From: an uncultured Gammaproteobacteria bacterium
GTDB lineage: Bacteria; Patescibacteriota; Patescibacteriia; Magasanikbacterales; UBA922
Length of the DNA stretch: 64,000 bases
Direction of reading: 5' to 3'
NCBI GenBank assembly: GCA_964597575.1
Contig: CAZQXB010000001.1
Coordinates: 778,892 to 842,891, forward strand
Shown piece by piece: positions 3,863 to 54,751 of this stretch (positions are counted from its first letter, which is position 1; every line of letters begins with the position of its first letter). The notes beneath the pieces are model-generated. The model had not been told where the DNA came from. It was given only the letters and a program-made list of their open reading frames with translations, and made no database searches. Made by a program: the position numbers and the translations under genes.

Positions 3863-5020
3863 TTAGTATACCTTAGGTGCGTGTCTCTCGGCAACGCGTT
3901 GGTAAAGATCCATAAGAGTGTCCGCAATCCTATCCCATGAGTACAGAGCCACAGTATCTTCGCGCAGCTGTGTTTGGTCTTTAAGACTCCAAGGCGTAAC
4001 CAATTGATCCTGGAGAGCCTGAGCGAGGAGAGCTGGGTTTCCCGGGGGAACGACTCGTCCATGGCCTTTTTTGGCAACCGTACGAAGCCCTGGGAGGTCA
4101 GAGGCAACAACGGGCACACCACTTGCCATCGCCTCAAGAAGTACAAGGCCAAAAGCCTCACCTCGTGTAACGGAAGGAAGCGTAAACACATCGGCGAGGT
4201 TATACATATAAGGAAGTTCGTCGTCAGAGACCCGACCGGTGAAATGGGTAACATCTTCAATATGAAGGGTAGATGCTTCTTTTTCATAGGCAACTCGGTG
4301 CGAGCCATCACCCACTAAAAGCAATTGCACCCGCTCTCCCCGCTTTTTGAGAATAGAAATGGCCTGCAGCAAAATAGGAATACCCTTAAAAGCATGCGCT
4401 TCATCCATCCCCCCAACAAACAAAATCGTTTTGAAATCTTTTCGTAAACCGAAGCGATCGATAAGTATTTGTTTTTTTGGTCGGATAGAAAAGCGGAGAG
4501 GGTCAACCCCAAAAGGAATCTCGTGCCAGATATGGGGGTAGCGTGCGAAATGGCGAGTGGCACTTGTAGTTTGCATATAGTCAAATGTACTCGCGATGCA
4601 GGCGTCGGCCGCACGCAAAAGACGAGGAAGAACTACAGCCTGAGAAAGACGAAAAATCATACCAAGAAACCCGTGAGTGACAGGCTCCATATGGTAACTG
4701 AGCACCAAAGGAATGTTCGGATGAAGTGTTTTAAACGAAGCGATCATTTCATGAGCACCAAAAAAGGGATAGTGAAAATGAACAAGCTCAGCGCCTTCAA
4801 GCGCCTTAAAAAGCCCAGGAGTGAAGGCTCCATTGCCGTATGAAGCAAGGGTCGGGAGTCGAACGACGGTAGGGTCTGGTGGTATATTTTTCTTGTATCG
4901 CGGAGTAACCGCAATAACATCATGCCCACGAGCTCGGAGCGCTTGGCACATTTCAAAAGCCACCTGGCCCATGCCGGCCTTATATGGCGGATATACACAG
5001 ACCACGTGGACTACACGCAT
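3863..5020 (-). CDS. Glycosyltransferase family 4
   Basis: 385 aa with a GT-B fold signature. The E-x7-E region is present (LEAMASGVPVVASD). Confidence 0.8.
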   Translation of the reverse strand: MRVVHVVCVYPPYKAGMGQVAFEMCQALRARGHDVIAVTPRYKKNIPPDPTVVRLPTLASYGNGAFTPGLFKALEGAELVHFHYPFFGAHEMIASFKTLHPNIPLVLSYHMEPVTHGFLGMIFRLSQAVVLPRLLRAADACIASTFDYMQTTSATRHFARYPHIWHEIPFGVDPLRFSIRPKKQILIDRFGLRKDFKTILFVGGMDEAHAFKGIPILLQAISILKKRGERVQLLLVGDGSHRVAYEKEASTLHIEDVTHFTGRVSDDELPYMYNLADVFTLPSVTRGEAFGLVLLEAMASGVPVVASDLPGLRTVAKKGHGRVVPPGNPALLAQALQDQLVTPWSLKDQTQLREDTVALYSWDRIADTLMDLYQRVAERHAPKVY

Positions 5021-5023
5021 ACA

Positions 5024-5359
5024 CTATTTTTTAGAAATGTCTCGCAAAGCAAGTTCGCGGACAAGGGAGGTGAGCTGGCGCTCGAGTCGATCAAAATGAA
5101 CTTCAGCTCGAAATAAGAGTGCAAAAATGAGAGTAATGGCAGCGTACACAACGAGGTCAGCTCCACGGCCAATACCGAAAGTTTCGGCGACTCGAGAAGC
5201 ACTCTCAGGCCACAATGTTACAAGTGTTGCTAAACACCAAAAACAAAGCCATAAAAGAAGCGCTCGCGCGGACCATGACTTTCGAATTTTCAAATACACT
5301 CCCCCAATTGACGCAAGCACTGCCACCCCTAAAAATACCCACTGAAAAGTAATAAGCAT
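5024..5359 (-). CDS. DUF2304 family membrane protein
   Basis: 111 aa with 3 TM helices and a C-terminal coiled segment (RLERQLTSLVRELALR). This is a typical companion of GT2 genes. Confidence 0.6.
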   Translation of the reverse strand: MLITFQWVFLGVAVLASIGGVYLKIRKSWSARALLLWLCFWCLATLVTLWPESASRVAETFGIGRGADLVVYAAITLIFALLFRAEVHFDRLERQLTSLVRELALRDISKK

Positions 5360-5361
5360 AT

Positions 5362-6021
5362 TTATGAAGAAAAACGACCAAAAAATAAATCGCGCAATAC
5401 TTTAAACCCTTGGAAAAACCGCTGACCATACCGGTGATACGTCACATGAATGGGCAACTCTCCATATCGCAAATGTGCCCGACCAACCAGTACCGGTATT
5501 TCGCTTGCATGAGCCATTCGATCTTGAGTGATACGAAGTTGTGGCAAGGCAGTACCGCGAATAACCCGAAACCCACAATGACTATCTGACAGAGTGATGC
5601 CACCGAGAACATGATTGATTAATTTAGCTCCAGGCCAAATAACAAAGCGTTTCATGGCTGGAAGTTTATACTCGGCAGAATGGATTCGCTTGCCAATAAC
5701 AATATCAAGTTTTTTTTCTTCAAGAAGGTGAATTCCTCGGGCCACATCTTCTACGTCAAACTGGTCATCCCCATCGAAATGAACAACTACCTCTGCTTGA
5801 ACTATTTTGGCATACTCGTGGCCCGTTTGAAGCGCTGCACCCTGACCTCGATTAATCACATGGCGCAAAACCACAGCCCCGGCTTCAGTCGCCGCTTTAT
5901 GTGTTTCATCAACCGACCCATCATCAACTACGACTATTTGGTCTACATACGAAGAAAGGTTCCGCACAACGGAACCAATTTTCTTCTCTTCATTCAGCGC
6001 AGGAACTATTGCGAGACGCAT
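5362..6021 (-). CDS. Glycosyltransferase family 2 (polyprenol-phosphate sugar synthase-like, Dpm1/GtrB type)
   Basis: 219 aa with a GT-A N-terminus (VPALNEEKKI, VVVDDGSVDET) and a DxD-like region. Confidence 0.8.
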   Translation of the reverse strand: MRLAIVPALNEEKKIGSVVRNLSSYVDQIVVVDDGSVDETHKAATEAGAVVLRHVINRGQGAALQTGHEYAKIVQAEVVVHFDGDDQFDVEDVARGIHLLEEKKLDIVIGKRIHSAEYKLPAMKRFVIWPGAKLINHVLGGITLSDSHCGFRVIRGTALPQLRITQDRMAHASEIPVLVGRAHLRYGELPIHVTYHRYGQRFFQGFKVLRDLFFGRFSS

Positions 6022-6044
6022 ACGAAAAACACAGAAGGGGCGCC

Positions 6045-7064
6045 TTAAAAGGCCATAAATTCCTTATTAGCAATAGCATAATCAATAGTTTGACGCAAGC
6101 CATCTTCAAGACGAACGAGTGGTAACCAACCAAGGGCTTCTTTGGCGCGACGAAGGTCAGGAACGCCTTTTTTACTCATGTACGCAAGCGGGGTATCAAA
6201 CACTACCCGGGAGCGAGATTTCGTCATGGCCAAAATAAGTTCAGCCACATCGGTCATACGATAAATTTGATCTGCTCCCAAATTCACAATGTGCGTTTCT
6301 GGAGCAGTACGCATCAGACGAATCATGCCATCAACCACATCAGACACATAGCAGAGAGATTGCGACAATTCTCGATCACCATAAATAATCACGTCTTTCC
6401 CTTCGAGCGCGTTCACAATAAAATCGGGAATGAGCAAGCCATCACGCAAACGCATGCGCGGTCCGTAGGTAGGAAAAACACGCGCAATTTTAGCATCCAC
6501 TCCATGAACCTGCCGATACGTTTCAACACAGGTTTCGCCAAACCGCTTTCCCTCATCATAGCATGCACGGCTCGAAAGATGGTCAACTTTCCCCTCATCA
6601 GTTTCAGCGAACATGAAATGATCTCGAGTGGGTTCTCCGTAAATAACTGAACTTGAAGAAAAAACGTATTTAGCACGATGTTCGCGTGCGAGTTCGAGTG
6701 TCATCATCACCCCAATGGAATTCGCAGCCAGTGATTGGAGCTTGTGCGATTCAAAGTTTTTTGGACTTGTCGGGCAAGCCAAATGGTAAATTTCTTGAAC
6801 ACCCTGGTACTTCACATGAAATTTATCGAGTTCGGGAAACTGCGTTAAATCAATGGGTTTAGTGACATCGTACTTAATAAATTCAAAATCGGGATACTGA
6901 AGCAAGTGTTCAATATTTTGAATACCAGAATTGGACAAATCATCAATACAAATCACTTTCGCGTCACGAAGTAATCGCTCGGAAAGGTGCGACCCCAAAA
7001 ATCCGGCACCGCCGGTAACAATCACATTCTTTTTTTCAAAGACTCCGGTATTTTTTTCAAACAT
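6045..7064 (-). CDS. UDP-glucuronate decarboxylase-like NAD-dependent epimerase/dehydratase (UXS family)
   Basis: 339 aa with the GGAGFLGSH Rossmann motif and RACYDEGKR characteristic of UXS enzymes. Confidence 0.8.
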   Translation of the reverse strand: MFEKNTGVFEKKNVIVTGGAGFLGSHLSERLLRDAKVICIDDLSNSGIQNIEHLLQYPDFEFIKYDVTKPIDLTQFPELDKFHVKYQGVQEIYHLACPTSPKNFESHKLQSLAANSIGVMMTLELAREHRAKYVFSSSSVIYGEPTRDHFMFAETDEGKVDHLSSRACYDEGKRFGETCVETYRQVHGVDAKIARVFPTYGPRMRLRDGLLIPDFIVNALEGKDVIIYGDRELSQSLCYVSDVVDGMIRLMRTAPETHIVNLGADQIYRMTDVAELILAMTKSRSRVVFDTPLAYMSKKGVPDLRRAKEALGWLPLVRLEDGLRQTIDYAIANKEFMAF

Positions 7065-7115
7065 ACTTCTTTTTTAGTATACCACACCAAGTAACGAGAA
7101 GGATACTATCTTTTG

Positions 7116-9152
7116 TTACAAAAGGGGTTCAGTAAACATCTCGAGCCGACTGTTGGGTGGAAGATCAGGGAATTCCCACATCTCAAGCAGCCGTGGACGG
7201 TCATCAAAAACACGAATCGTTTTTCCATTATCCGTTCGTTTTACCACGACCTCAAGATACCGATCGCCGTATAAATCCGCCAAAAGAACTTGGGTCGTAC
7301 TTTTCGCACCCCCTTCTCCTATCGGAAATGCTCGAAGTTCGACTCCTTCATAGGTAAGGTAAGAAACCATTGGACCACTGCCCTGATTATGACCAACCAC
7401 AATTTCAAGGGCATCATCTCCAGTAATATTTCCAATAGCTAAGCTCGTTGGCATACGTACTTTTGGAAGTGAGACTGTATGCTGAACTGATCCATTCGAT
7501 GCAAACAACCGAAGCACGACAGCTCCCTTCGCATCGGCCATGACCGCGGCTACTTCACCTAAAGATGCACTCGGATTGCGTACAATGGTCAGAGCTTTAA
7601 GTGCCTGCCCTGGAGAAGCCGGCACCGTAAGACGCTTTACCCCAAAGAGTGAAAACACTTCGTACCACGTTGACGCATTAGGGACATACACCACAATTTC
7701 AGGAGCATCGGTTCGAGTAACGAAGCCAACAGCCATCTTCGCGTTCGCCGGAGCCGCAATTCTTTTATCACTCACAAGCGTAAAATCACTGGTGTACAAC
7801 CGCAAACGAGCATTCTTAGAATCGACACGTGAAAGCGAAATGTAGGCTAAGTCACCACGAAAAAAGATGGTTTCAACTTGAGTAGCATCCGCAAAAACTT
7901 CTATTTTTTTCTCCTCTCCTAATGAGGAGTTTTTCGCATGTACTTCAAAAGATGACTGGCCTGTGCGCCAAATAGCGAGAGCTCGTGGAATAAACGCGGT
8001 TCGAGTGAGTGCTGCTTTCTCTACCGCCCCAAAGGCTTGAACTAACCCTCGTCCAAAAAGAGCAGCATACTCATCTTCATTTTTCGGCGTCGTTTTAGAG
8101 ACGCTTTCAAATAACGCGGTATACAATTCTTTTGCTTGCCACTCTGGCTGAACACTTTTCACAAGCGCCAAAATTCCGCTTACGAATGGAGCAGCATACG
8201 ACGTTCCACGTTTGCCTGTGGCATAAGCCTCTACAAAACCAACGGCCGGATCATTCGCAATCGTACTCGCAATATCGACACCCGGGGCAGTTACATCAAT
8301 ACAACTTGAACCGCTATTCGAAAACTGAGCAAACATACGCCCTTCGCGAATCGCACTTACCCCAACCACTGTCTGCGCATTTTGAAGAGCGTCCGCACAG
8401 ACTGGATACTGTGGAGTTGTGTTCAGATCAAACAAGCTATTTCCTGCAGCGGCCACCATTGCTACTCCGTGAAAAGCAGCGTACTCAACCGCTGAACGAA
8501 GTTCGGTATCGTACGCACTTCCTACCAAACTTACATTAATAATGTCAGCTCCATTATCAACGGCATATCGAATCGCCTTTCCAAGAACAAAGCTCTCTGA
8601 AACCCCAGTTTCATCAACAACACGCACGCTCATAAGCTTCACGCGCCAATTGATGCCACGACCATGGATTCCATTGTCTCCGCGAGCGCCAATAATTCCG
8701 GCGACAATAGTTGCGTGACTAATATTTTCATGTTCTTCCGCTGAAAGATTCGTTCGAAGGCGCGGGCGCACATTGGGGTTCCCCCCTACCTCATCTGGCC
8801 CAATTTCTCCATCCCCATTCAAATCATCTGGAATAAAATTCCATCCGTACACATCATCAACATACCCATTTCGGTCATCATCAAGACCATTTTGAGCAAT
8901 CTCCCGACGGTTCGTCCAAATATTCTGAACTAAATCTGGGTGATCAATATCAATACCGTTATCAATAACAGCAACCACAGTATCGTCTGAACCCGTCGTA
9001 ATCTCCCATGCCTCAGGGACACGAAGTAACTCATACGCCCAGCGCAAGGGCTCTGGATCATTTGAAACTTTCGCATGTACTAGCCCTGGAAAACCCAAAA
9101 AAAGAATAAGCAAAAGAAGAAAGGGACGCACCAAAGAAAGACGTCTGCACAT
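7116..9152 (-). CDS. Secreted S8 family serine peptidase (subtilase) with a C-terminal FG-GAP-like repeat region
   Basis: 678 aa with a signal peptide. Catalytic Asp (VIDNGID), His (HATIVAG) and Ser (GTSYAAP) regions are present. The C-terminus carries repeats ending in EIVV. Confidence 0.85.
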   Translation of the reverse strand: MCRRLSLVRPFLLLLILFLGFPGLVHAKVSNDPEPLRWAYELLRVPEAWEITTGSDDTVVAVIDNGIDIDHPDLVQNIWTNRREIAQNGLDDDRNGYVDDVYGWNFIPDDLNGDGEIGPDEVGGNPNVRPRLRTNLSAEEHENISHATIVAGIIGARGDNGIHGRGINWRVKLMSVRVVDETGVSESFVLGKAIRYAVDNGADIINVSLVGSAYDTELRSAVEYAAFHGVAMVAAAGNSLFDLNTTPQYPVCADALQNAQTVVGVSAIREGRMFAQFSNSGSSCIDVTAPGVDIASTIANDPAVGFVEAYATGKRGTSYAAPFVSGILALVKSVQPEWQAKELYTALFESVSKTTPKNEDEYAALFGRGLVQAFGAVEKAALTRTAFIPRALAIWRTGQSSFEVHAKNSSLGEEKKIEVFADATQVETIFFRGDLAYISLSRVDSKNARLRLYTSDFTLVSDKRIAAPANAKMAVGFVTRTDAPEIVVYVPNASTWYEVFSLFGVKRLTVPASPGQALKALTIVRNPSASLGEVAAVMADAKGAVVLRLFASNGSVQHTVSLPKVRMPTSLAIGNITGDDALEIVVGHNQGSGPMVSYLTYEGVELRAFPIGEGGAKSTTQVLLADLYGDRYLEVVVKRTDNGKTIRVFDDRPRLLEMWEFPDLPPNSRLEMFTEPLL

Positions 9153-9164
9153 AAAGGAAACGCT

Positions 9165-11003
9165 TTAGCGTTCTTGAAGAACACCACCATCAAAAAACGA
9201 AGGAAGAGCTACAAGAGGGTCAATATTTTTCTGTGTTCGTACGCTCCCTTCTACCGCCGAACGATACTTTGGTTTAACCGAGAAACGTGTCTGATGATTC
9301 CCGAGCAAAAACTGCTCACTCGTGGATCGACCGAGAGAGGTGAAAAATCCTGACGGAGCTCGGTGAGCATAGGAATTGGTGCCGAGTTGAACCAGAGAGC
9401 CATGAGGGTAGTGGTAACTATCCTTAGGTAGTTTTGACAACTTACCCCCGGTTGTTGGTGAGCGTCCCGCCATAATGTCCCTTCCATCGCTCACTCCATT
9501 TCCATTGGTATCAGCGCGCATGGGGTTGGTGAGCCAATACACCACCTCTTCATAGTCTGAGACAGCATCATTATCACTGTCCGTTCGCGCATCGCTTGAT
9601 CCGTACTCTTGTTCACTTTCTGCATCGAGCCCATCGCCATCAAAATCTTTCGCCCCAGGAACCGTACTTCCGGTTGAAATGATGGTATAGGCGGTTCGTT
9701 CTGTTCCAGAGAGCTCCACCAAACGGCCTGGCCAACCCGCACCATAAAGAAGATTTGCTTCTGTTTCTGAACGCAAATGCCTCAAGGTACAGCCATACTC
9801 CACAGCAAAGACCCGTGCATCACCACGAAATTTGACAAGCCAGGTGCCTGGGCGAATACAAACAGGGGCTCCAATACCATAACGGTCAATTTCTCCCGAA
9901 GAGACACTTGCAAGCGAAGCATCTGAAGGAAACCATGACTCAAACACCTTCTGTGACATAGGATGAAGCGCGCGATCACGCCCAAAATAAAGCACCTGCC
10001 CTCGTGCATCTTTTACAACCACGCCGGGTGTTAAGGTTCCGGCCTGGGGCTGTGGCCGAAGCGTTGCAACACTTGGTTTATAGGTAATGGTCTGACGAAC
10101 AGTAGAGGTAGTTTTATCACGGTCGTAGAACTCAACATACACCGTATGAATTCCTGACCGATTTTCCAAAGTCCACGGCATTGCCTGTCGGGGTGTGCGC
10201 CATACTCCGTCGTTTAAGGTGGAAGTATTACTTACCCGAAATGACTGAATATCGGACGGATACGAAAAGAGAAGATTGACCTGCGGCACCTTCGTTTCTT
10301 TCGCACCATTATTAATGGTGAACGTAGGCTTCTTGACCGCCCGATCGACTACCTCAATGGAATCCTGAAAAATATTACTTTGTTTATACTCCCCCGTGTT
10401 CCGATCAATTTCAGTATATTCAAATTGTGCGTATATGGTTTTTCGTCCGAGTCCATTATCAAGCCGGTGGCGAAGCGTGGCGATTGGTTTTCTCCACGCC
10501 ACAGTATCCATAGGAAGGCTATTCGACACACGCATGCGGCGAATATTTTTAGGAATTCCAATTTCCACAGACACCAAACTACTGCTCGTCTCGTCATCTC
10601 CGCCTTCAATAATAAGATATCCCTCTTGGTTCAAGTAATAGATAATGGTATCGGAATAAATCGCACTATCGACATAATTCCGATTACGAAATTCCACATA
10701 AACGGTTTTTCTTCCCGAACCCTCAGACAAATACCAGTTTTTTAACTCCGGACGAAACACACGCCAGTCGGCCCCAGCTACTTCATCGCGACTATTTCCA
10801 ATACGCATATGCGTCGTAGTGGTCGGTGCCTTAAACGTAAGCGTAACAAAACGATCGCTCGTTGAGCGAACATTTTTATTTATCACAACACTTGGTTTAA
10901 TAACCGTAGCTGCTTCAGTGAAGCTAAACCACAAAATTCCAGGGATAGCCAAAACCGCGACAAACAGAAGGAGTTGAAATTGCCTGGTAAACCTGGTATA
11001 CAT
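9165..11003 (-). CDS. Secreted hypothetical protein with Ig-like tandem domains and thrombospondin type 3-like Ca-binding repeats
   Basis: 612 aa with a signal/TM N-terminus and three roughly 95-aa repeats (KTVYVEF, KTIYAQFE, HTVYVEF). The C-terminus has DxDxDG motifs (DFDGDGLD, DSDNDAVSD, DTNGNGVSD). Confidence 0.6.
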   Translation of the reverse strand: MYTRFTRQFQLLLFVAVLAIPGILWFSFTEAATVIKPSVVINKNVRSTSDRFVTLTFKAPTTTTHMRIGNSRDEVAGADWRVFRPELKNWYLSEGSGRKTVYVEFRNRNYVDSAIYSDTIIYYLNQEGYLIIEGGDDETSSSLVSVEIGIPKNIRRMRVSNSLPMDTVAWRKPIATLRHRLDNGLGRKTIYAQFEYTEIDRNTGEYKQSNIFQDSIEVVDRAVKKPTFTINNGAKETKVPQVNLLFSYPSDIQSFRVSNTSTLNDGVWRTPRQAMPWTLENRSGIHTVYVEFYDRDKTTSTVRQTITYKPSVATLRPQPQAGTLTPGVVVKDARGQVLYFGRDRALHPMSQKVFESWFPSDASLASVSSGEIDRYGIGAPVCIRPGTWLVKFRGDARVFAVEYGCTLRHLRSETEANLLYGAGWPGRLVELSGTERTAYTIISTGSTVPGAKDFDGDGLDAESEQEYGSSDARTDSDNDAVSDYEEVVYWLTNPMRADTNGNGVSDGRDIMAGRSPTTGGKLSKLPKDSYHYPHGSLVQLGTNSYAHRAPSGFFTSLGRSTSEQFLLGNHQTRFSVKPKYRSAVEGSVRTQKNIDPLVALPSFFDGGVLQER

Positions 11004-11014
11004 ACAGGATAGAA

Positions 11015-12436
11015 TTGAATAGTCGTAGTATACGAAATTTTCTTATTCTTCGCAACGGTATGATGGCTTTCCGCATAAAACAACTCATTTTACTTACCGG
11101 GGACCTCGCCCTTATGTACGCGGGCCTCTGGGGAGGGCTCGGTTTACGCACACTGTCTATCCCCTCAGCTGACCTTTGGGGTCGGCACGTTCCTATCTTT
11201 ACCCTCACTTTTTTGTGCTGGGTTGTAATCAATTACATTAATGGACTCTACGACGCCACCCGCACCTACCCCATACGTCGTTTCGCCGAAACCGGCATCA
11301 TGGCCCTCATGACTGGGGTCATCTTTTTCTACTTATTTGGAGAAGCAGGATTCTCGCCAAAAACCATTCTTCTTATTGCAGCCACCCTTACCTACATCGG
11401 TATTGGATTTTGGCATATTCAGTTTGGAAAAGCCCAAGGCAACATTCGCCTGCAGACAAAAATTGCCTTTGCTGGCTTAACCGAGGAGGCCGTTGGACTT
11501 ATCTCCATCCTCCAAAAGGAGCCTGAAAGGGGATATCGCATTGAAGCCATTTTTGATGCCGACCCAAAAGACTTCCCAACCCTCGCTTCTAGTACTTCTT
11601 TGCCTTTTTACAAGAAAGAAAAAATGAAGGAAATTTTTACGGAAAAAGGAATTAGTACTGTTATTTTGGTACCGCTCAATCAAAATGCTGAAGTGATGCC
11701 AGCACTTTACCCTGTTCTCTTCTCTGATGTCTCAGTAAAAACGCTTTCAGATTTCTATGAAGAAATTACCGGACGTATTCCCCACTCTCTTTTTTCTGAA
11801 GAGTCATTTTTAAGCAACCTCAAACGAGAAAGAAACCCCCTCTACCGCCATATTCGTCGCACAGTCGACTTACTCGCGGTGCTTCTTATCGGCAGCGTCT
11901 TTTTGATTCTCTTCCCCTTCATTGCCATTCTTATCAAGGTGAGTTCCCCAGGCCCTCTCTTTTTTAAACAAAAACGTACCGGCGAATACGGGCAGATATT
12001 TTGGATGCACAAACTTCGCTCGATGTATGCGCTTTCGCCAGACGGAAGTGCTGAACTTCATGGTTTTGAATTTGCGAAAAAGGAAGATAAACGAGTAACA
12101 CCCATTGGGAAATGGCTTCGCCGCATGCGCATTGATGAGTTGCCACAATTATGGAATTTGGTGCGCGGAGATATTACGCTCATTGGCCCACGACCAGAGC
12201 GACCTGAGATTGTCGCAGAGCTTGAAGCCCGCATGCCATACTATGCACTTCGAAACATGGTTAAACCGGGGTTGACCGGTTGGGCTGTACTTCATCAAGA
12301 TTATACCGACACCATTGAACGCTCTCTTGAAAAACTGCAGTACGATTTATACTATATAAAAAACCGTTCACTCTTACTTGACATGGCGATTCTTCTCAAA
12401 ACCATTGATAAAATTATCCGCATGAAGGGGCAGTAA
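11015..12436 (+). CDS. Polyprenyl-phosphate sugar phosphotransferase (bacterial sugar transferase, WbaP/PssY family)
   Basis: 473 aa with multi-TM segments and the conserved C-terminal catalytic domain (KLRSM, DELPQLWNLVRGDITLIGPRPERP). The true start may be the internal Met at about 11063. Confidence 0.8.
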   Translation: MNSRSIRNFLILRNGMMAFRIKQLILLTGDLALMYAGLWGGLGLRTLSIPSADLWGRHVPIFTLTFLCWVVINYINGLYDATRTYPIRRFAETGIMALMTGVIFFYLFGEAGFSPKTILLIAATLTYIGIGFWHIQFGKAQGNIRLQTKIAFAGLTEEAVGLISILQKEPERGYRIEAIFDADPKDFPTLASSTSLPFYKKEKMKEIFTEKGISTVILVPLNQNAEVMPALYPVLFSDVSVKTLSDFYEEITGRIPHSLFSEESFLSNLKRERNPLYRHIRRTVDLLAVLLIGSVFLILFPFIAILIKVSSPGPLFFKQKRTGEYGQIFWMHKLRSMYALSPDGSAELHGFEFAKKEDKRVTPIGKWLRRMRIDELPQLWNLVRGDITLIGPRPERPEIVAELEARMPYYALRNMVKPGLTGWAVLHQDYTDTIERSLEKLQYDLYYIKNRSLLLDMAILLKTIDKIIRMKGQ

Positions 12437-12484
12437 GGGGTGATTGATAAATAAAATTTTGACCAAAGATGCCATAGGCAGGCC

Positions 12485-12513
12485 TTGATTTTTTCTCTAG
12501 AAGATGCTATTCT
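12485..12513 (+). promoter_or_regulatory. Candidate sigma70 promoter for lipoprotein gene A
   Basis: TTGATT, a 17-nt spacer, then TATTCT. A GGAGG Shine-Dalgarno lies 8 nt before the ATG at 12575. Confidence 0.35.
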
Positions 12514-12574
12514 TTTTTTGCTTCCCTATGGTAGATCCAACGTGATCGCTTAGGCTAAAGCGGAGGTTAAACGA

Positions 12575-13147
12575 ATGATTGCAAAGTGTCTGGGAAAGTA
12601 CATGGTCCTACCTCACGTCCTCCTGGCGTTCACTCTGATCTTCGCCGCTGCATGCGGCGGGCAGGAGATGGAGGAAGAGGCTTACGGTGAGACCGCCTCG
12701 CCGTCCTACGCCACCGACTGTGCTGGACAGCCGCCCGGCGCGATCGTGGCGGTGACCGCCGTCCAGAAGCAGTACAGGTACGTCAGCACGAACGCACACG
12801 CGTTCACTGTGAACGCGACCAGCCCCTACGGCTGGTTCACGTTCAACAACCGGTCCACGTTCTTCGGGCAGCAAGTGTACTCGGCAATCGTCATACCGGC
12901 TCAGTTTCACTACGCCAACTACGCGCTCCCTTCCTACCCGGGAGTAGTATGGCTACTCCCTTCGTCCGGTACTTTGCCGCCGGGAACCCAGCTTTGGTGG
13001 CACACTGAAGTTCCAGGAGCCATGGGATCAACCTTGCTCGATCTAGATGAGGTGGGGCAGAGCCCGCAAGTCCTCAGATATAGCGCGAGGGACACGAGTC
13101 ACACGCAGGTAGGAAACGTGACTCTTAGCTACGTCTGCGGAAACTAG
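12575..13147 (+). CDS. Hypothetical lipoprotein (GC-rich, no recognisable family)
   Basis: 190 aa with a signal peptide ending at a lipobox-like AAAC. Codon third positions are strongly GC-biased, unlike neighbouring genes. Two further Cys residues are present. Confidence 0.6.
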   Translation: MIAKCLGKYMVLPHVLLAFTLIFAAACGGQEMEEEAYGETASPSYATDCAGQPPGAIVAVTAVQKQYRYVSTNAHAFTVNATSPYGWFTFNNRSTFFGQQVYSAIVIPAQFHYANYALPSYPGVVWLLPSSGTLPPGTQLWWHTEVPGAMGSTLLDLDEVGQSPQVLRYSARDTSHTQVGNVTLSYVCGN

Positions 13148-13261
13148 GCTCTGCCACATAACGGCGCCTCCTCCCCCCTCACGTTTCACCAGTTGCCGTA
13201 TACAGTTGTAGCCAGTTCGTTCATTGTCGAACAACCCGCTCCTGTTCAAAAACTGGTTCCC

Positions 13262-13292
13262 AAAAAAAGAGCTTTTACGGAGGCTCTTTTTT
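13262..13292 (+). terminator. Putative rho-independent terminator after lipoprotein gene A
   Basis: Hairpin aaagagc-ttttacggag-gctcttt followed by a T-run. Confidence 0.4.
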
Positions 13293-13416
13293 GGTACATA
13301 CATTTTCGAAAACCCGACTGCTCGCTAAAAAAGGAGAAACACTAAACTACCTATAAAAACCACCATTATGAATTGTAAAAATCGCTTAATCTAGCTGTTT
13401 TTTATGAATAACCTAT

Positions 13417-13445
13417 TGACAAAACCACTATTTTGTGCTATAGTG
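13417..13445 (+). promoter_or_regulatory. Near-perfect sigma70 promoter (TTGACA-17-TATAGT) for lipoprotein gene B
   Basis: TTGACA at 13417-13422, a 17-nt spacer, then TATAGT at 13440-13445. A 90-nt structured leader follows. Confidence 0.6.
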
Positions 13446-13542
13446 CGCTGTTCCGAGGCCAAAAAGCTTCACATAAACGGAACTCGACTGCCTTACAGTC
13501 GACAACCTAAAACCCTGGATTCTTCCAGAGAAAGGCTCAACC

Positions 13543-14010
13543 ATGAACCTCAAGCGTATCGCTCTTTCCCTGGTCATCGCGATCGTCAGTGCCTTCATCG
13601 GGTGCGCAGCGGGCTCCCCCCAGCAGCACCACAAGGCCGAGGTGGCCGAAGAGCGACCTACCGGCGGAGGGTGGCAGACGAAGCACTTCTACTGTACCCT
13701 CATGATGGGCAACGTGTGCCCCGACATCTCGGCCCTGCACAAGCTCGACCATCTCCTCGACGAGGTGTTGAGCGAAGGAGGCTCGAGGGACGTCCACGAT
13801 GTCGCTGAGGGGATGATCGAAAAATCCACCACCCTGGACGGCGCCGAGATGCGCCTCAGCATGGTGCCCGAGGACGCCAAGACGCCCGTCGGGTGCCGAG
13901 GGGGTTGCGGATTCATCGAGCTCCGGACACTGGATGGACGGCGCTGGATCGTCACTGTCGAAGGGAGCCGGGAGATCAACGGAAACGTGATCTTCTGGCC
14001 GGAACAGTGA
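13543..14010 (+). CDS. Hypothetical lipoprotein with 4 Cys in the mature part (GC-rich, no recognisable family)
   Basis: 155 aa with a signal peptide and an IGC lipobox (AFIGC). Cysteines occur in the blocks FYCTLMMGNVCPD and GCRGGCGF. It has the same GC3-biased codon usage as gene A. A weak terminator hairpin ccccac/gtgggg plus T-run follows at about 14018-14050. Confidence 0.6.
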   Translation: MNLKRIALSLVIAIVSAFIGCAAGSPQQHHKAEVAEERPTGGGWQTKHFYCTLMMGNVCPDISALHKLDHLLDEVLSEGGSRDVHDVAEGMIEKSTTLDGAEMRLSMVPEDAKTPVGCRGGCGFIELRTLDGRRWIVTVEGSREINGNVIFWPEQ

Positions 14011-14079
14011 CACATACCCCACCACTATACAGTGCGTGGGGTAAAATTATTTTTGGAGCATATGAGCCACAAAAAATCC

Positions 14080-14994
14080 TTACACCACATTCCACAATTT
14101 TTTCATCTCAAGCACTCCCTCTTCTAAAGAAATTATCGGCTCCCAGCCTAAAAGAGTTTTTGCTTTATCATTATCGGCTTTAGTAAAACGAACATCGCCC
14201 AAACGTGGCGGTACAAACTGTGTCTCCCCACCAATTAATTTGGCCAGGGCATTTACAGAAACAGGTTGGCCATTCCCAATGTTAATACACTCCCCTTTTC
14301 CAACCGTTGTTGCTGCCATGGCCAAAACATTGGCACGGGCAATATCTGACACGTGCGTGTAATCTCGATAATATTCGCCATCGCCACAAATCGTCATGGG
14401 TTCCCCCTTCCGGCGCTGTTCTAAGAACTTTCCGATGACAAGTGCATAGGCTCCTTGTGGATCCATGTAAGGACCATACACATTAAAGTAACAGAGTGCC
14501 ACCGTTTCAAGGCCATAGAGAGATGAAAAAAGACGGCAATACTCTTGCCCTGCCAACTTTTGCAGCGCATAAGGGCTTTGTGGATCGGGCTTCATGTCTT
14601 CGGTAATCGCCACATCCCCGCGATTTCCACCATAGATAGAAGATGACGTGCTAAAAATGACCCGCTTCACTTTCGCATCCCGTGCCGCCAAAAGAACATT
14701 CAGGGTTCCGTTAACATTGTGATCGTTTGTTATAAGTGGCTGCTCTACCGAAAATGGTACGCGCGGAACTGCCGCCAGATGAAAGACACCGTCGACACCC
14801 TGAACCGCCGAAGCGACTGCGCTCAAATCTCGAATATCTCCCTCACGATACTCAACCCCTTCAATGACTCGTTCAGGAAAACGCCCTCCCAAATAATTAT
14901 CAAACACGCGTACCGCATGACCTTCTGACAAAAGTTGTTTCACCAAGTTCGTTCCGATAAATCCTGCTCCCCCAGTAACAAGATACAGTGCCAT
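14080..14994 (-). CDS. NAD-dependent UDP-sugar 4-epimerase (GalE/WbpP-like SDR)
   Basis: 304 aa with GGAGFIG, YxxxK (SPYALQK) and extended SDR epimerase architecture. Confidence 0.75.
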   Translation of the reverse strand: MALYLVTGGAGFIGTNLVKQLLSEGHAVRVFDNYLGGRFPERVIEGVEYREGDIRDLSAVASAVQGVDGVFHLAAVPRVPFSVEQPLITNDHNVNGTLNVLLAARDAKVKRVIFSTSSSIYGGNRGDVAITEDMKPDPQSPYALQKLAGQEYCRLFSSLYGLETVALCYFNVYGPYMDPQGAYALVIGKFLEQRRKGEPMTICGDGEYYRDYTHVSDIARANVLAMAATTVGKGECINIGNGQPVSVNALAKLIGGETQFVPPRLGDVRFTKADNDKAKTLLGWEPIISLEEGVLEMKKLWNVV

Positions 14995-15004
14995 AAAGAA
15001 AAAA

Positions 15005-16390
15005 TTATTCTTTGGTACCCATGTATGGTGAACCTACTGCAATAATAGAAAACCCCGCATCTCTTAACTCACTAAAACGATGCTGAAGCATACGCCTGCC
15101 ATCCATAATAAGTGGCCGCTTCTTTTCTCCGAGAAGCAGATCGCCGAGACCGCGAAACTGCGGCCAATCGGTCGCAACGATGACCACATCAGCGCCTTTC
15201 ACTGCTTCGTATTCATGCGAGGCATAGGAAATCACCGTGTCAACTGGAAATTCTTTTTGGAAACCTTCCATAGCTGCAGGGTCGTATAACTGAATACGAG
15301 CCACACCTTTTTCACGCAAAAATTGGACCATGGAAATACTTGGGGAGTTGCGAATATCATTGGTATCACGTTTAAATGCCAAACCAAGAATCGCGACCGT
15401 TTTACCGCTCCAAGAGAAATGCGCTTCTTTCTCTGCACGAGCCAAGAAAAGTTCGAGTTGGCGCTTATTCGCTAAATAGGTTTCATTCACAAGCACTGCC
15501 TCGGTTCCCGCCATTTGTAATTGATGCGACAGTGATCGTGCATCTTTAATAAAACAGCTTCCGCCCGCATATACACTGTCGTAAAAACCCCAGGTACCGA
15601 TACGAGGGTCGCTCGTCATAATGCGACGAATCGTTTCAAACTGCACATCAGGAAAGGCTTCACAGGTTCGACCAACAACATCAAAACACACCGCTAGTCG
15701 ATTGAAGAGATAAAAATTGGCTAACAGTTTTCCAGCAGCAGCTTCTTTCGGATTCACCTCCAAGTATTGAACCGTTGGTGAATCATGAAATCGTTGATAA
15801 ATTTCACGCATCACTAAAAAATCTTCCTCTCGCCATGCCCCAACCACAATACGATCGGGCTTGAGAGAGCCCGCAATCGCCTTTCCTTCAACTAAAAATT
15901 CTGGATTCGAAACCACACCCACGTGCTTTACACCGGCTTCTTCCAAAATGGCGTCGGTACGAAGCACCATATCAATCGGTACCGTACTCTTATTCACAAC
16001 CACAAGCCGCTTCGTTTGCGCTCCCCCATTTCGTTTTGTGAGTGCTTCGGCCAATTGAGCGGCCGCAGTATTGTAGTACGTCAAATTACTTTCCCCTGTT
16101 TCTCCAATTTCAGGAGTAGGCAAACACATAAACACCGCGTCACAGGTGTCTAAAAAGGAAGAAAGATCGGCGTAGTTGGTACTGAAGGTGATTCGATCTT
16201 TGTGGCGAATGAGCAAATCCGATAAGCCTTCCTCAAAAAGACACGATTCAATGGCCTCACGGTTTCCTGATCCTAATTTTTGAATTTTTCGCTCATCAAC
16301 ATCGTAAACAAACACTCGGTGCCCGCTGTCCGCTGAAACGGCCGCCGAGCACGAGCCAACAAAGCCTGCCCCGATGTAGGCGATGTTCAT
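15005..16390 (-). CDS. Nucleotide-sugar dehydrogenase (UDP-glucose 6-dehydrogenase family)
   Basis: 461 aa with an N-terminal GAGFVGS Rossmann fold and a UDPG/MGDP dehydrogenase central/C-terminal layout. Confidence 0.8.
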   Translation of the reverse strand: MNIAYIGAGFVGSCSAAVSADSGHRVFVYDVDERKIQKLGSGNREAIESCLFEEGLSDLLIRHKDRITFSTNYADLSSFLDTCDAVFMCLPTPEIGETGESNLTYYNTAAAQLAEALTKRNGGAQTKRLVVVNKSTVPIDMVLRTDAILEEAGVKHVGVVSNPEFLVEGKAIAGSLKPDRIVVGAWREEDFLVMREIYQRFHDSPTVQYLEVNPKEAAAGKLLANFYLFNRLAVCFDVVGRTCEAFPDVQFETIRRIMTSDPRIGTWGFYDSVYAGGSCFIKDARSLSHQLQMAGTEAVLVNETYLANKRQLELFLARAEKEAHFSWSGKTVAILGLAFKRDTNDIRNSPSISMVQFLREKGVARIQLYDPAAMEGFQKEFPVDTVISYASHEYEAVKGADVVIVATDWPQFRGLGDLLLGEKKRPLIMDGRRMLQHRFSELRDAGFSIIAVGSPYMGTKE

Positions 16391-17328
16391 ACTTGGGTAC
16401 GGAAGTAATCAATCGTAATCTGGAGTCCGGTTTTCAAATCAAAAGTGGGTTCCCAATCTAAGAGTTGTTTTGCTTTTGTAATATCAGGGCGGCGGCGTGT
16501 GGGGTCATCTTGAGGAATAGGGCGATACACCACTTCACTTTGTGTTTTTGTGGCCCCTCGCACCCGTTCAGCAAATTCAGTAATCGTTATTTCTTCTGGG
16601 TTTCCTAAGTTAATTGGCCCGGTAATCGCGAGTGGTGATTCCATCATCGCGATAAAACCACGGACCAGGTCGTCTACGAAACAAAAACTGCGTGTTTGGC
16701 TGCCGTCGCCAAAAACCGTCATTTGCTCGCCACGAAGCGCCTGAAGAACGAGGTTTGAAACCACTCGCCCATCGTCGAGTGCCATTTTCGGCCCATAGGT
16801 GTTAAAAATACGCACCACCTTAATCGGTACGCCAAATCCGCGATGATAATCAAAAAAGAGCGCCTCGGCACACCGCTTGCCTTCGTCATAACATGCGCGT
16901 GGACCAATACAATTCACTGATCCTCGATATTCTTCATACTGCGGATGAATTTCAGGGTCGCCATACACCTCAGATGTTGACGCCTGAAGAATCGTGGCTC
17001 CTTTTTCTTTTGCCACCTCAAGCACATGCATCACACCAACGGTATTGGTTTGAATGGTGTGGATTGGATTTTTTTGATACTGCACGGGCGACGCAGGGCA
17101 AGCCAAATTATATATTTCGTGCACTGGCTCATCGATAGAAAATTGTTCAATAATGTCGTGTTCAATGAGCACAAAGTCCGGGTGAACCAAAAGCGCCTCG
17201 ATGTTCTTCTTTGATCCTGTTGAAAAATTATCAACACAAAGAACCCGATTTCCTCTTTCCAAAAGCCGCTCACACAGATGTGAACCAATAAACCCGGCTC
17301 CACCCGTCACCAGAATTGTCTTTTTCAT
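16387..17328 (-). CDS. UDP-glucuronate decarboxylase (UDP-xylose synthase, UXS)
   Basis: 313 aa with STSEVYGDP and RACYDEGKR blocks, very close to canonical UXS. Confidence 0.85.
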   Translation of the reverse strand: MKKTILVTGGAGFIGSHLCERLLERGNRVLCVDNFSTGSKKNIEALLVHPDFVLIEHDIIEQFSIDEPVHEIYNLACPASPVQYQKNPIHTIQTNTVGVMHVLEVAKEKGATILQASTSEVYGDPEIHPQYEEYRGSVNCIGPRACYDEGKRCAEALFFDYHRGFGVPIKVVRIFNTYGPKMALDDGRVVSNLVLQALRGEQMTVFGDGSQTRSFCFVDDLVRGFIAMMESPLAITGPINLGNPEEITITEFAERVRGATKTQSEVVYRPIPQDDPTRRRPDITKAKQLLDWEPTFDLKTGLQITIDYFRTQV

Positions 17329-17339
17329 AAAAACCTCGT

Positions 17340-18203
17340 TTATTTCTTTGGTTTCACCATATTCTTACATAACGCTCGAAAGTATGCAAGCCAAATACCC
17401 ACCCAAACCAACCCCCGAAAAACCCCTGAATGGACCCCCGCGAAGTGTTTATCGTAGTAGAGCCACATCGCATGGTAGAAGTTTCGAATCGACCGGACCC
17501 GACTCTTTTTACTGCTCTGCCCGCCTAAATGGGTAATAACGGACGTATGTACGTAGTGAATAGGAAATCCGGCATCAAGCACCCTTTTACATAAATCCAA
17601 GTCTTCTCCATACATGAAAAAACGCTCATCAAAACCCCCGACAGCGTGATAGACCTCTCGTCGAAAAAGCATGGCTGCCCCGGAAATAGCCTCAACCACA
17701 CCTGAAACATCGGGTGATTCCGCCTCCCCTTTATAGGCGTTCAGTCGTTTTGAACCCGGAAATAACTTGCCGATCCCAGATAAGTAGAAAAAAGAATTGA
17801 TTGGATTGGGCAACCGGCGCCGACACGCATGTTGAAATGACCCATCGCTATTCAACAGCTTAGGCCCAACCATTCCAACTTCAGCATGTTCCGAAAGATA
17901 CTGAACTAATACATCGACTGCTCCTTCATGGGTGATCGTATCGCTGTTTAATAAAAAAAGAAAATTTCCTGTAGCTCGTTTCAGTCCAATATTATTCGCT
18001 TTTCCAAATCCTAAATTAGCTTCATTCACGATAAGCACCACGTCCGGAAATTCTGCTTTGACCATCTCCACACTTCCGTCGGCCGAGGCATTATCGACCA
18101 CAATCACCTCAAGCTGTACGCGGGTTGCCTGAAAAAGTGAGGCGAGAGTTTGCCGAAGTAAATCTTTGGTGTTCCAATTCACGATAATTACAGAAGTACG
18201 CAT
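17340..18203 (-). CDS. Glycosyltransferase family 2
   Basis: 287 aa with VIIVNWNT, VVDNASADGS and DxD motifs. It shares a near-identical 109-bp tract with the GT2 at 19213-20097. Confidence 0.8.
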   Translation of the reverse strand: MRTSVIIVNWNTKDLLRQTLASLFQATRVQLEVIVVDNASADGSVEMVKAEFPDVVLIVNEANLGFGKANNIGLKRATGNFLFLLNSDTITHEGAVDVLVQYLSEHAEVGMVGPKLLNSDGSFQHACRRRLPNPINSFFYLSGIGKLFPGSKRLNAYKGEAESPDVSGVVEAISGAAMLFRREVYHAVGGFDERFFMYGEDLDLCKRVLDAGFPIHYVHTSVITHLGGQSSKKSRVRSIRNFYHAMWLYYDKHFAGVHSGVFRGLVWVGIWLAYFRALCKNMVKPKK

Positions 18204-26066: not shown

Positions 26067-27496
26067 ATACTTTTCTTTGAAGATTGCTTTTCGAAAACCC
26101 ACACGAGAAAATGCGCCATACGGTCTGACCCAAAAAACGGAACGCTGCGAACCTTCGCAAAGTCGTGAACTTTCCACGCCAGTCGCCGAGCGGTACGATG
26201 AATGAGTTGAAAAAAAGTTGATTGTGGAATGTCACTTTTGTAAAAGGTGTCTAACAAACGTGAGGAGTACATTTCCTTGTAATTGCGAATGTCCTCTTCA
26301 CTTGGCGACCAAGGAGTCAACACATACACCGCGGGAAGCTTCACTAATTGTGGTTCTTGCAAAATTGAATGACCTTTACTATCTAGAATCTCCACAAACG
26401 CTTTTTCCACCTGTCTAGTTACTTTTTCTGGATCATACACTTCCCTTACCTTTTTATTACCCGCAGTACCCATCTCCTCTCTTTTTGATTTATTCTTCCC
26501 GAGAAAAATAACGGCTCCAGCCATCTGTTCTGGAGTATTGGCGATATACCCATTCTTTCCATGATCCACTTGCTCGATCTGCCCATTATCCTTATTCGGG
26601 GTACTATGCGTGATAACAGGCTTCTTCCAATACATCGCCTCATTAATTGTATTTCCAAACGCTTCACCAATCTTTGAAGTGTGAGTCAAAATATCAATGG
26701 TCTGGTAGAAGCGATGAACTTCTGCCTCATTCGCGGTTTCAGGAATAAGCACCACCTTATCCTCTGACCACATCTTTCGAACCCAATTTTTTCGTGAGGA
26801 TGGAACATCTTGAATCAGACAAGTGATCTCTGGGTTTTGCTTAAAAAGAATTGGTAGCATTTCTAAGAGTAAATCACTCCACTTGGTAATATCGGGTCGA
26901 CCCAACCTACCGATAACAAGATTATTTTTTGGAATCTTAAGAAATCTTTTATACTCCTCAATCTGCTCTGGTGTAAGCCTGTAATTTTCAAAAGAGGCGC
27001 AATCTACTGGGTTATATACCACATGCATTTTTTTGGGATTATACCCCCCACCAGTAGCCGAAATAAACCTCTCATTCAACATCATCTTACTTTTTAGCAA
27101 ATGCATATCAATCACACTACCCGTGACCGAATCATACTGACCAAACACATTGGTCTCAACAATTGCTGCTTGCGGAAGCATCACTCTTAATTTCTGCAGC
27201 AGCTCGCGCTCAAGCTGATTAGGCCCGCCTGAACGGTGAATATGAATCACGGCGGGTTGCTCTTTTTCAGCAAGGGCAAATATTTTCTCAAGGTCTCCCG
27301 CAGCCACCAGTGTTGGAATCCCCAACGACTCAAAATCTTTTTGCCGAGAACCCCCTTCTCCATAGGATATCGCAAAAATCTGAAAATAATCCTTTCGTAA
27401 ATATTTGCAAAAAGAAAACATGGTCCGCTGAGCTCCCGCGTAGGCAAACGAAGTATTAATCTCAAAGACTTTTATTTTTTGAGCTGCTTCATCCAT
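26063..27496 (-). CDS. Glycosyltransferase family 4
   Basis: 477 aa with a GT-B C-terminal domain (IGEAFGNTINEAMYWKKPVITH). Confidence 0.7.
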   Translation of the reverse strand: MDEAAQKIKVFEINTSFAYAGAQRTMFSFCKYLRKDYFQIFAISYGEGGSRQKDFESLGIPTLVAAGDLEKIFALAEKEQPAVIHIHRSGGPNQLERELLQKLRVMLPQAAIVETNVFGQYDSVTGSVIDMHLLKSKMMLNERFISATGGGYNPKKMHVVYNPVDCASFENYRLTPEQIEEYKRFLKIPKNNLVIGRLGRPDITKWSDLLLEMLPILFKQNPEITCLIQDVPSSRKNWVRKMWSEDKVVLIPETANEAEVHRFYQTIDILTHTSKIGEAFGNTINEAMYWKKPVITHSTPNKDNGQIEQVDHGKNGYIANTPEQMAGAVIFLGKNKSKREEMGTAGNKKVREVYDPEKVTRQVEKAFVEILDSKGHSILQEPQLVKLPAVYVLTPWSPSEEDIRNYKEMYSSRLLDTFYKSDIPQSTFFQLIHRTARRLAWKVHDFAKVRSVPFFGSDRMAHFLVWVFEKQSSKKSI

Positions 27497-52434: not shown

Positions 52435-52694
52435 AGGAATAATACGTGCGGCGACGAGCGCGCCTTCTGACAAAGCAGAAAGGTCCCATCGACACAATTT
52501 TATAATATACCCCCATGTGTCACGACTCGTTGCCGAGCCTCGACTTTTTGGTGTCACATGCCTCGCATTCAATCGCAGGCCCGCGGTGAATGAAAGGGTT
52601 TACCAAGTCAGATAATGACCTGGACCATACTGTATGGCATTCGGACGCCTGACCGAGGTCAAGCATACGTAGCCATACAATATGTAGTATTTTC

Positions 52695-54588: not shown

Positions 54589-54751
54589 ACAAGAAGACGT
54601 GAGAAAAGGAAAAACGTTACACCCAGCACTGTCACAACCAAAAAAGATATCTACGAGTATAGCCAAAAAAGCGGAAAAAAACAAGGCCCACACCCCTTAA
54701 ATACGGTTTTTTGATTACCTTAGTGATACCATTTTGTAAAAAGGATTTTAT

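Follow-up and report, generated by a model that had tools for sequence, protein, structure and literature searches.

A 64-kb stretch of contig CAZQXB010000001.1 (assembly GCA_964597575.1; the whole stretch is called the window here) carries a 1,643-bp insertion where a priming sugar transferase gene and a sugar epimerase gene converge; it lies between their two stop codons. The insertion holds two unrelated open reading frames (ORFs), ORF1 and ORF2, which have a base composition foreign to their surroundings, bear lipoprotein signals and belong to no recognizable family. Our best reading places this strain-specific insertion at a variable junction in the envelope-polysaccharide locus of a Magasanikbacteria-like bacterium within the Candidate Phyla Radiation (CPR; Patescibacteria). 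As to what the two genes are, we favor, at roughly even chances, horizontally acquired surface lipoprotein units that came from a source rich in guanine and cytosine (GC) and resemble the morons known from phages. The features concerned are collected in Table 1.

The foreign composition could be established with confidence. The window has a mean GC content of 0.461 (400-bp windows, standard deviation 0.036); the 18 most GC-rich of these windows all lie inside 12451-13151 or 13401-14151 and reach a maximum of 0.645, and the highest value outside the patch is 0.538. The 46 other genes of the window, which served as the reference set, have a GC content of 0.459 +/- 0.024 and a GC content at third codon positions (GC3) of 0.417 +/- 0.037, with a range of 0.30-0.49. 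Measured against this set, the GC3 of ORF1 lies at z = 8.6 (GC 0.593; GC1/GC2/GC3 0.57/0.48/0.73) and that of ORF2 at z = 10.9 (GC 0.628; GC1/GC2/GC3 0.62/0.44/0.82), so that a first-pass annotation of this DNA, made from the sequence by eye, was right to call both ORFs far richer in GC than the rest of the window. The order GC3 > GC1 > GC2, combined with significant codon periodicity (z of GC3-GC2 of 5.2 for ORF1 and 7.5 for ORF2), is the pattern of genuine GC-rich genes. Their codon usage runs opposite to that of the host, as befits the foreign look ascribed to them: the correlation of relative synonymous codon usage (RSCU) with the host is negative both for ORF1 (r = -0.49) and for ORF2 (r = -0.34). 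Between the two ORFs it is positive (+0.58), which is consistent with one common source.

On a finer scale the patch falls into three composition classes: the ORF bodies at 0.60-0.63 GC; the transcribed untranslated regions (UTRs), that is, the ORF1 leader, the ORF1 3' UTR and the ORF2 leader, at 0.48-0.54; and the control and spacer DNA, comprising the first terminator, the spacer behind it and the ORF2 promoter, at 0.31-0.34. These classes bear out the earlier claims that the spacer is AT-rich and that the patch is a compositional mosaic, not a single-block transfer. The view that the GC-rich zone consists of the ORFs only holds for the bodies but not for the UTRs, which are also raised; GC enrichment tracks the transcribed parts, UTRs included.

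Comparison with related CPR loci (contigs designated by L numbers) shows that the patch was added to an otherwise conserved neighborhood. A three-gene order is kept around the site in the relatives: a gene for a 612-amino-acid surface protein, the Bac_transf transferase (+) and the epimerase (-). In the closest relative, L001, whose protein identities to the three flanking genes are 71%, 76% and 62% (transferase 71%, epimerase 76%), the stop codons of transferase and epimerase are ~5 bp apart; the gap amounts to ~42 bp in L012 and ~110 bp in L004. Since the flanking genes abut in all three, 12437-14079 is an insertion. Two further relatives have cargo of their own at the same junction, in neither case GC-rich: glycosyltransferase-like and methyltransferase-like genes in L006 (11495-13445), and what reads by eye as a nucleotidyltransferase and HEPN-like pair in L008 (11486-12286). 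The differing cargo marks the transferase/epimerase junction as a variable site and an insertion hot spot. The 612-amino-acid protein itself has an N-terminal hydrophobic segment and is conserved beside an S8 peptidase gene in the relatives; several overlapping tblastn matches to one and the same gene of a relative suggest internal repeats.

There is no sign of the machinery by which such an insertion might have been mobilized. Pfam searches of the 64 kb identified no integrase, transposase or phage gene, no tRNA lies near the patch (the sole tRNA of the window, a tRNA-Met, is at about 106-180), and at the insertion boundaries no flanking direct or inverted repeats, attC sites or transposon ends were found above chance; the absence of an integrase or tRNA boundary had been seen correctly from the sequence. 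The AT-rich segments of the patch show no similarity to host DNA, to related DNA or to each other, and their origin as copies of host DNA or of one another was rejected on these grounds. The chimerism that the first-pass annotation had asked to be checked is effectively excluded: a 19-kb Logan contig produced by a second assembler (SRR13355620; our L092) is 100% identical to window positions 4080-18027, that is, over 13,948 bp including the whole insert, and recurs in 3 samples, so that a chimera is very unlikely.

Each of the two genes forms a unit with its own ribosome-binding site and terminator, and ORF2 has, in addition, a near-consensus sigma70 promoter. Textbook sigma70 promoters had been proposed for both genes. 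That of ORF2 stands, with an 11/12 match and an extended -10 TG, and begins at 13416, one base away from the position 13417 first given; for ORF1 the best candidate matches at only 8 of 12 positions. No terminator separates the transferase stop codon from ORF1 (fold z +0.38), and ORF1 may therefore be transcribed by read-through. A GGAGG Shine-Dalgarno sequence is likewise present at ORF1 only, ORF2 having a weak GAAAGG (13530-13535). The proposed terminators were confirmed as hairpins at 13262-13293 and 14015-14043. The ORF2 leader folds more stably than expected (z = -3.79; 0/200 shuffles were equally stable). The ORF2 promoter is one of two sites in the 64 kb that match at 11 or more of 12 positions; the other, a 12/12 TTGACA-17-TATAAT at 57148-57176 (+), lies upstream of a native GT4 glycosyltransferase gene (57202-58350, +), which shows that consensus sigma70 promoters are native style in this CPR organism. 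The description of the patch as foreign coding sequence under native regulation is right as to promoter style (the gene at 57202), but finds no support in the AT-rich segments, which lack similarity to the host.

We considered whether the patch might encode something other than these two proteins. A 161-amino-acid antisense ORF at 13537-14025 (-) was rejected as a true gene, given its GC1 of 0.82 and its lack of a signal peptide, promoter or family match; it is a side effect of GC-richness, the in-register complement of ORF2, kept open by the lack of TTA, CTA and TCA codons on the sense strand, and the lipoprotein signal on ORF2 (+) settles the coding strand. The Logan gene call at this place (L092 4006-4491) is the antisense ORF. 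The 15-billion-protein collection does not contain ORF2 (+), which public records probably mis-annotate or lack. A non-coding RNA was rejected as well: no Rfam family was found in 12000-14500 (E <= 10), and at the gathering threshold the whole window yields the tRNA-Met only.

Bacterial lipoprotein precursors can be recognized by a PS51257-type rule, which demands a Lys or Arg among the first seven residues, then a hydrophobic stretch free of charges, and a lipobox [LIVMFWSTAG]2-[LIVMFYSTAGCQ]-[AGS]-C with its Cys at position 15-35. Only 2 of the 183 six-frame ORFs of at least 70 amino acids conform to it, and these are ORF1, with a lipobox ...LIFAAA-C27-GG (FAAA-C27; Cys codon 12653-12655), and ORF2, with ...SAFIG-C21-AAGS (AFIG-C21; Cys codon 13603-13605). 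Besides the lipobox Cys, the predicted mature proteins contain even numbers of cysteines, two in ORF1 (positions 49 and 188) and four in ORF2 (51, 59, 118 and 122), which would fit disulfide-bonded extracytoplasmic proteins. The genes for the processing enzymes Lgt and LspA were not found in the 64-kb window. ORF1 and ORF2 have no similarity to each other, and the idea that they are paralogs was rejected accordingly.

Table 1. Features of the insertion, of the surrounding window and of GC-rich units in related loci. Positions refer to the window unless a contig is named.
Feature	Contig	Position	Strand	GC3	GC3 of neighbors	Basis or remark
Whole insertion, 1,643 bp	window	12437..14079	.			between stop codons of two convergent genes
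ORF1 candidate promoter TTGATT-17-TATTCT, 8/12, weak	window	12485..12513	+			read from sequence; below scan threshold
ORF1 GGAGG Shine-Dalgarno	window	12562..12566	+			8 nt before ATG; read from sequence
ORF1, 190-aa orphan lipoprotein precursor	window	12575..13147	+	0.73		lipoprotein rule
ORF1 3' UTR, GC 0.54, still foreign-like	window	13148..13261	+			composition
ORF1 intrinsic terminator: A-run, GAGC stem, U-run hairpin; bidirectional	window	13262..13293	+			inverted repeat/fold
Untranscribed AT-rich spacer, GC 0.32	window	13294..13415	.			composition; no similarity to host/related DNA
ORF2 promoter TTGACA-17-TATAGT, extended -10 TG, 11/12	window	13416..13444	+			sigma70 scan
ORF2 leader, ~92 nt, GC 0.48, three hairpins	window	13451..13542	+			fold
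ORF2, 155-aa orphan lipoprotein precursor	window	13543..14010	+	0.82		lipoprotein rule
ORF2 intrinsic terminator, 12-bp hairpin (14015-14043) then UAAAAUUAUUUUU	window	14015..14056	+			-18.6 kcal/mol, z = -3.47
Left flank: priming sugar transferase (Bac_transf), native	window	11015..12436	+	0.46		Pfam PF02397, E 9.6e-55
Right flank: NAD-dependent sugar epimerase, native	window	14080..14994	-			Pfam PF01370, E 2.4e-58
Asn-synthase-type amidotransferase	window	27472-29358				
Radical SAM	window	32796-34028				
Flippase	window	40068-41399				
Wzy_C	window	45737-47749				
Extracytoplasmic function (ECF) sigma factor	window	54010-54693				
FAM	L004	11742-12695		0.82	0.27-0.36	
FAM	L082	188-1048		0.84	0.31-0.39	
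FAM	L086/87	L086 151-1023		0.81	0.36-0.39	
FAM	L091	2671-3564		0.91	0.48-0.50	
FAM	L083			0.55	0.28-0.39	
FAM	L084			0.54	0.39-0.47	
FAM	L085			0.54	0.49-0.52	
FAM	L090			0.42	0.23-0.38	
NUDIX-like	L006	18240-18737	-	0.68	~0.30	
NUDIX-like	L067	862-1542	+	0.53	~0.28	

The first-pass description of both products as lipobox proteins with extra cysteines and no recognizable family also stands, with the lipoprotein rule satisfied and Pfam and NCBIfam searches empty. Neither protein had a match in Pfam (E <= 0.1 for ORF1), NCBIfam, PDB, PHROGs or PADLOC; with ORF1, a word-indexed search of 5.8 billion clusters returned solely ORF1 itself. For ORF2, no homolog was found in the 5.8 billion clusters or in metagenome, viral, plasmid or PDB searches. 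A donor for either gene could not be identified in viral and metagenome contig scans, among plasmids (tblastn), phages (blastn) or PDB sequences, or in 80 related CPR loci (tblastn).

An exhaustive phmmer search of 1.84 billion representatives with ORF1 recovered itself and one other protein, P0003 (L081 814-12057, GCA_964404765.1), a protein of 3,747 amino acids with ~40 tandem CarboxypepD_reg/transthyretin-like repeats; all 15 units that were extracted have a conserved Cys pair. Its E-value of 5.7e-23 adds together ~10 matches to near-identical repeats, none of them above 17 bits. With a profile of the P0003 repeat, hhalign aligned ORF1 residues 44-94 at a probability of 85% over 51 columns, which covers half a domain only; the motif common to these residues and the first half of the repeat is DCxG..G.I......YR.V.......ST..G.F.F.N. 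As a moderate lead at the fold level, residues 44-94 of ORF1 may thus weakly resemble the CarboxypepD_reg-like (transthyretin-like) beta-sandwich, a fold frequent in surface and adhesin proteins. P0003 was rejected as the donor of ORF1, because its contig is at 50% GC and the summing of near-identical repeats inflates the E-value.

How might such units have arisen, and what might they do? We propose that horizontal transfer from a GC-rich source brought in the coding bodies together with their UTRs, plausibly through uptake from a GC-rich neighbor or host. Patescibacteria commonly show horizontal gene transfer and genomic islands (PMC12455944), and the donor could be a GC-rich host, since the known hosts of CPR bacteria are GC-rich, whereas CPR genomes are AT-rich (bioRxiv 10.64898/2026.06.21.733656). 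The AT-rich control elements would drive transcription by the CPR housekeeping sigma factor; the products would be exported by the Sec pathway, lipid-modified at Cys27 (ORF1) or Cys21 (ORF2) and anchored on the membrane's outer face, where they could act as disulfide-stabilized, strain-specific surface proteins in binding, adhesion or host interaction, with ORF1 perhaps adding a transthyretin-like beta-sandwich module.

Several observations weigh against this reading. The amino-acid composition of ORF1 and ORF2 lies inside the per-gene range of the host, which confines the anomaly mainly to synonymous sites. The control regions, at 0.31-0.34 GC, are unlike the flanks expected from a GC-rich donor, and the absence of donor homologs is unexpected for a recent import that has not yet ameliorated. 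The proposed function draws on the signal peptides and a weak half-domain match only, and single-sequence AlphaFold2 models were unusable, with predicted local distance difference test (pLDDT) scores of 36.5 for ORF1 and 44.1 for ORF2; a Foldseek search of PDB with this unusable ORF2 model (pLDDT 44.1) gave no match below E 0.16. Finally, GC-richness in two other, unrelated gene families of related CPR loci persists across protein identities of 37-64%, and high GC3 need not mean recent transfer.

The first of these families, here called FAM, consists of ~290-amino-acid proteins without a Pfam match; it was first found in L004 and has 19 homologs. In every contig examined (n=9) the gene sits within a sugar-nucleotide, nonulosonic-acid or glycan cluster, where it forms a unit by itself, complete with TTGACA promoter, leader, GGAGG, a 3' UTR of intermediate GC, and terminator. 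Its GC3 is an outlier in 9/9 of these contigs (0.42-0.91 vs 0.23-0.52 in the neighbors; Table 1), none of which is uniformly GC-rich, and the members with high GC3 do not form one clade in the family tree. In L004 and L091, FAM genes occupy the same position by a UDP-glucose dehydrogenase (UDPG-DH) gene; identity between the two contigs is 60-68% for the flanking genes and only 37% for the FAM proteins. The FAM promoter and a leader of ~75 nt are nearly identical between L082 (~80-187) and L086 (~45-150), although the proteins are only 64% identical. This leader contains a long hairpin and may be a conserved cis-regulatory leader RNA. The second family is NUDIX-like, with two genes (L006 and L067) that are 35% identical and, in different CPR lineages, both GC3 outliers; the promoter of the L006 unit is AT-rich, and its terminator forms a strong hairpin. 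An AT-rich promoter joined to a GC-rich transcribed body is therefore a genuine and recurrent mosaic in these genomes, and the regulation in our patch need not be called native, for in FAM the AT-rich promoter travels with the gene. A flank-vs-flank search for an element common to FAM units and window units found none: a 7-mer, CACCAGT, in the 3' flanks of ORF1 and two FAM units is a coincidence, as 20/40 shuffles did as well.

At the divergences within FAM and the NUDIX-like family silent sites are saturated, and a single old transfer followed by amelioration cannot explain a GC3 above 0.8 in several lineages. Either these genes have been imported repeatedly from an unsampled GC-rich pool, or their GC-richness is maintained in place. 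It is possible, if on balance doubtful, that the latter applies to ORF1 and ORF2 too: the GC-richness of such transcription units would be actively maintained in AT-rich CPR genomes, whether by selection on mRNA or codons (for stability, speed of translation, or expression set deliberately low or high), by biased gene conversion or by repeated allele replacement, and a high GC3 would be silent on the time of arrival. The consistent outlier status of FAM, its scattering over the family tree, the GC3 of 0.82 and 0.91 in the positionally equivalent L004 and L091 genes and the two diverged NUDIX-like outliers all speak for maintenance, as do the mostly synonymous deviation of ORF1 and ORF2 and the anatomy shared by the FAM, NUDIX-like and window units, in which the GC-rich zone takes in the UTRs and both promoter and terminator are AT-rich, with promoter and leader conserved within the FAM unit. 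Against it, ORF1 and ORF2 have no homologs, so that persistence is argued from other families; no mechanism is known that holds GC3 at 0.8-0.9 in single genes of a genome with 42% GC3; GC1 and GC2 of FAM rise with GC3 (slopes 0.22 and 0.10), as they would if mutation were directional within a GC-rich genome; a GC-rich pool not yet sampled may have supplied repeated imports; and ~1.3 Mb of CPR loci yielded only ~5 such units. The first-pass suggestion of compositionally selected secreted proteins gains partly and indirectly from the persistently GC-rich units of related loci but loses in its second half, since those units encode cytoplasmic-type proteins and secretion is not what the GC-rich genes have in common.

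A bolder extension, which we regard as unlikely, is that CPR bacteria hold a distinct class of units in their envelope-glycan loci, each with an AT-rich consensus promoter, a GC-rich body and a terminator and with its GC content maintained over the long term, ORF1 and ORF2 being new members. As the cause, selection could act on mRNA stability or translation in a symbiont that is adapted to AT and scavenges RNA, or alleles could be replaced continually from the gene pool of a GC-rich host; if allele replacement were true, the genes would bear a molecular fingerprint of the CPR bacterium's host. We found no description in the literature of gene-sized, persistently GC-rich units in CPR bacteria.

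An origin as phage or mobile-element cargo, be it as true morons, a decayed prophage or a cassette remnant, is improbable. A promoter and factor-independent terminator of its own, a GC content unlike that of its neighbors and evident addition relative to related genomes define a moron (PMC3594210), and the patch, inserted between genes adjacent in the relatives, answers to this definition in its anatomy, if for ORF1 with a weak promoter candidate only; many morons encode lipoproteins, and an HTH_17 (Xis-like) gene follows the FAM unit in two related contigs. However, phage, integrase and transposase genes are absent from the 64-kb window, PHROGs, two viral-contig scans and a phage database gave no match, and no direct or inverted repeats flank the insertion.

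The toxin/immunity or effector pair put forward at first fares worse, and we hold it to be very improbable. Two adjacent small orphans with cysteines and export signals in an accessory islet do invite the idea, but there is no operon (each gene has its own terminator, and ORF2 its own promoter), both products are predicted lipoproteins on the same side of the membrane, and the two proteins show no relation to one another or to a known pair; searches of PADLOC, PHROGs and Pfam were empty, with no toxin or immunity domain in PADLOC or Pfam, and no LXG, WXG or Rhs secretion-system marker was found. An artifact, whether chimera, contamination or a GC-rich non-coding RNA taken for genes, can be set aside almost entirely: the composition jump is sharp, ORF1 is known from one genome only and ORF2 is missing from protein databases, but the independent assembly is identical over 13.9 kb and its contig occurs in 3 samples, both flanks agree with the gene order of the relatives, a chimera would require four breakpoints, each exactly at a regulatory signal, and the two ORFs have the codon periodicity of real genes and, alone in the window, lipoprotein signals, with no Rfam family.

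All 46 other genes of the window belong to envelope-glycan, penicillin-binding protein (PBP), pilus-ATPase or sigma-factor types, and the 64 kb as a whole forms one envelope-polysaccharide locus. This locus has almost all genes on the minus strand and makes up at least 7% of the 0.91-Mb genome (913,817 bp); it includes at least 15 glycosyltransferases and many methyltransferases, in addition to the genes listed in Table 1. Three large orphans are without a Pfam match, at 9165-11003 (-), 612 amino acids, 48649-52572 (-), 1,307 amino acids, and 55255-57066 (-), 603 amino acids. Many third-party annotation (TPA) records of metagenome-assembled genomes (MAGs) titled "uncultured Gammaproteobacteria bacterium" (L001, L004-L007, L011, L014 and others) contain CPR-type genes whose order is the same and whose identity to those of the Magasanikbacteria-like window is 40-71%, and the organism labels of these records look unreliable.

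CPR bacteria are ultra-small symbionts, and for most of them the host and the attachment molecules are unknown. Strain-specific surface lipoproteins with a GC-rich codon signature in a sugar-coat locus are candidate host-interaction factors and may hint at the identity of the host. Taken alone, the patch would be a small acquired islet; what is unusual is that no donor appears among billions of proteins and that long-lived GC-rich units exist in parallel. The detection and dating of horizontal transfer by base composition assume that the composition of foreign genes comes to match that of the resident genome; should single genes stay at a GC3 of 0.8-0.9 over long times in genomes with a GC3 of 0.3-0.5, as FAM and the NUDIX-like genes suggest, this assumption needs qualifying for CPR bacteria, a large part of the bacterial tree. 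Such long-lived GC-richness, if general, would surprise researchers of genome composition.

Among known systems, two protein classes bear comparison with the products. With the Gram-positive-type lipoproteins that are substrates of Lgt and LspA they share a positive n-region, a hydrophobic h-region, a lipobox Cys (Cys21 or Cys27) and small Gly, Ala or Ser residues after it; they differ in having no homology to any lipoprotein family, in that no genes for the processing enzymes lie in the window, and, for ORF1, in an Ala at lipobox position -3 instead of Leu, Val or Ile. The likeness of ORF1 to CarboxypepD_reg (PF13620) consists in the motif that spans the first half of the repeat, whereas ORF1 has no match to the Pfam model, the alignment takes in half a domain only and single repeats score at most 17 bits.

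As a genetic element, the patch shows none of the integrase or recombinase genes and tRNA or direct-repeat boundaries that mark a classical genomic island, nor does it consist of integron cassettes: the inverted repeats at the 3' ends are terminator hairpins only, an integrase is lacking and the units have signals of their own. It is closer to the ORFan islets of convergent junctions and variable glycan loci, being a strain-specific insertion of deviant composition with orphan products, which leaves the neighboring operons intact at a junction where cargo differs among relatives. Unlike such islets, it has no integrase, tRNA, insertion sequence or repeats and shows a fine-scale GC mosaic; acquired ORFans are, moreover, usually AT-richer than the host, and ORF1 and ORF2 are GC-richer.

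The closest parallel is with phage morons such as HK97 gene 15 and the lambda bor lipoprotein gene, whose products are often small envelope proteins or lipoproteins. ORF1 and ORF2 resemble them in being autonomous units, each with a terminator of its own, added between genes that are adjacent in L001, L012 and L004; they differ in lying outside any phage or prophage, in the weak promoter of ORF1, in the tandem arrangement of two units, and in being GC-richer than the host, by a very large margin at silent sites. Four of five moron features are found wholly or in part, the one lacking being the phage-genome context; the own promoter is clear in ORF2 (11/12 with TG) and limited in ORF1 to the 8/12 candidate, with possible read-through. 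The units work like morons, but they are not morons.

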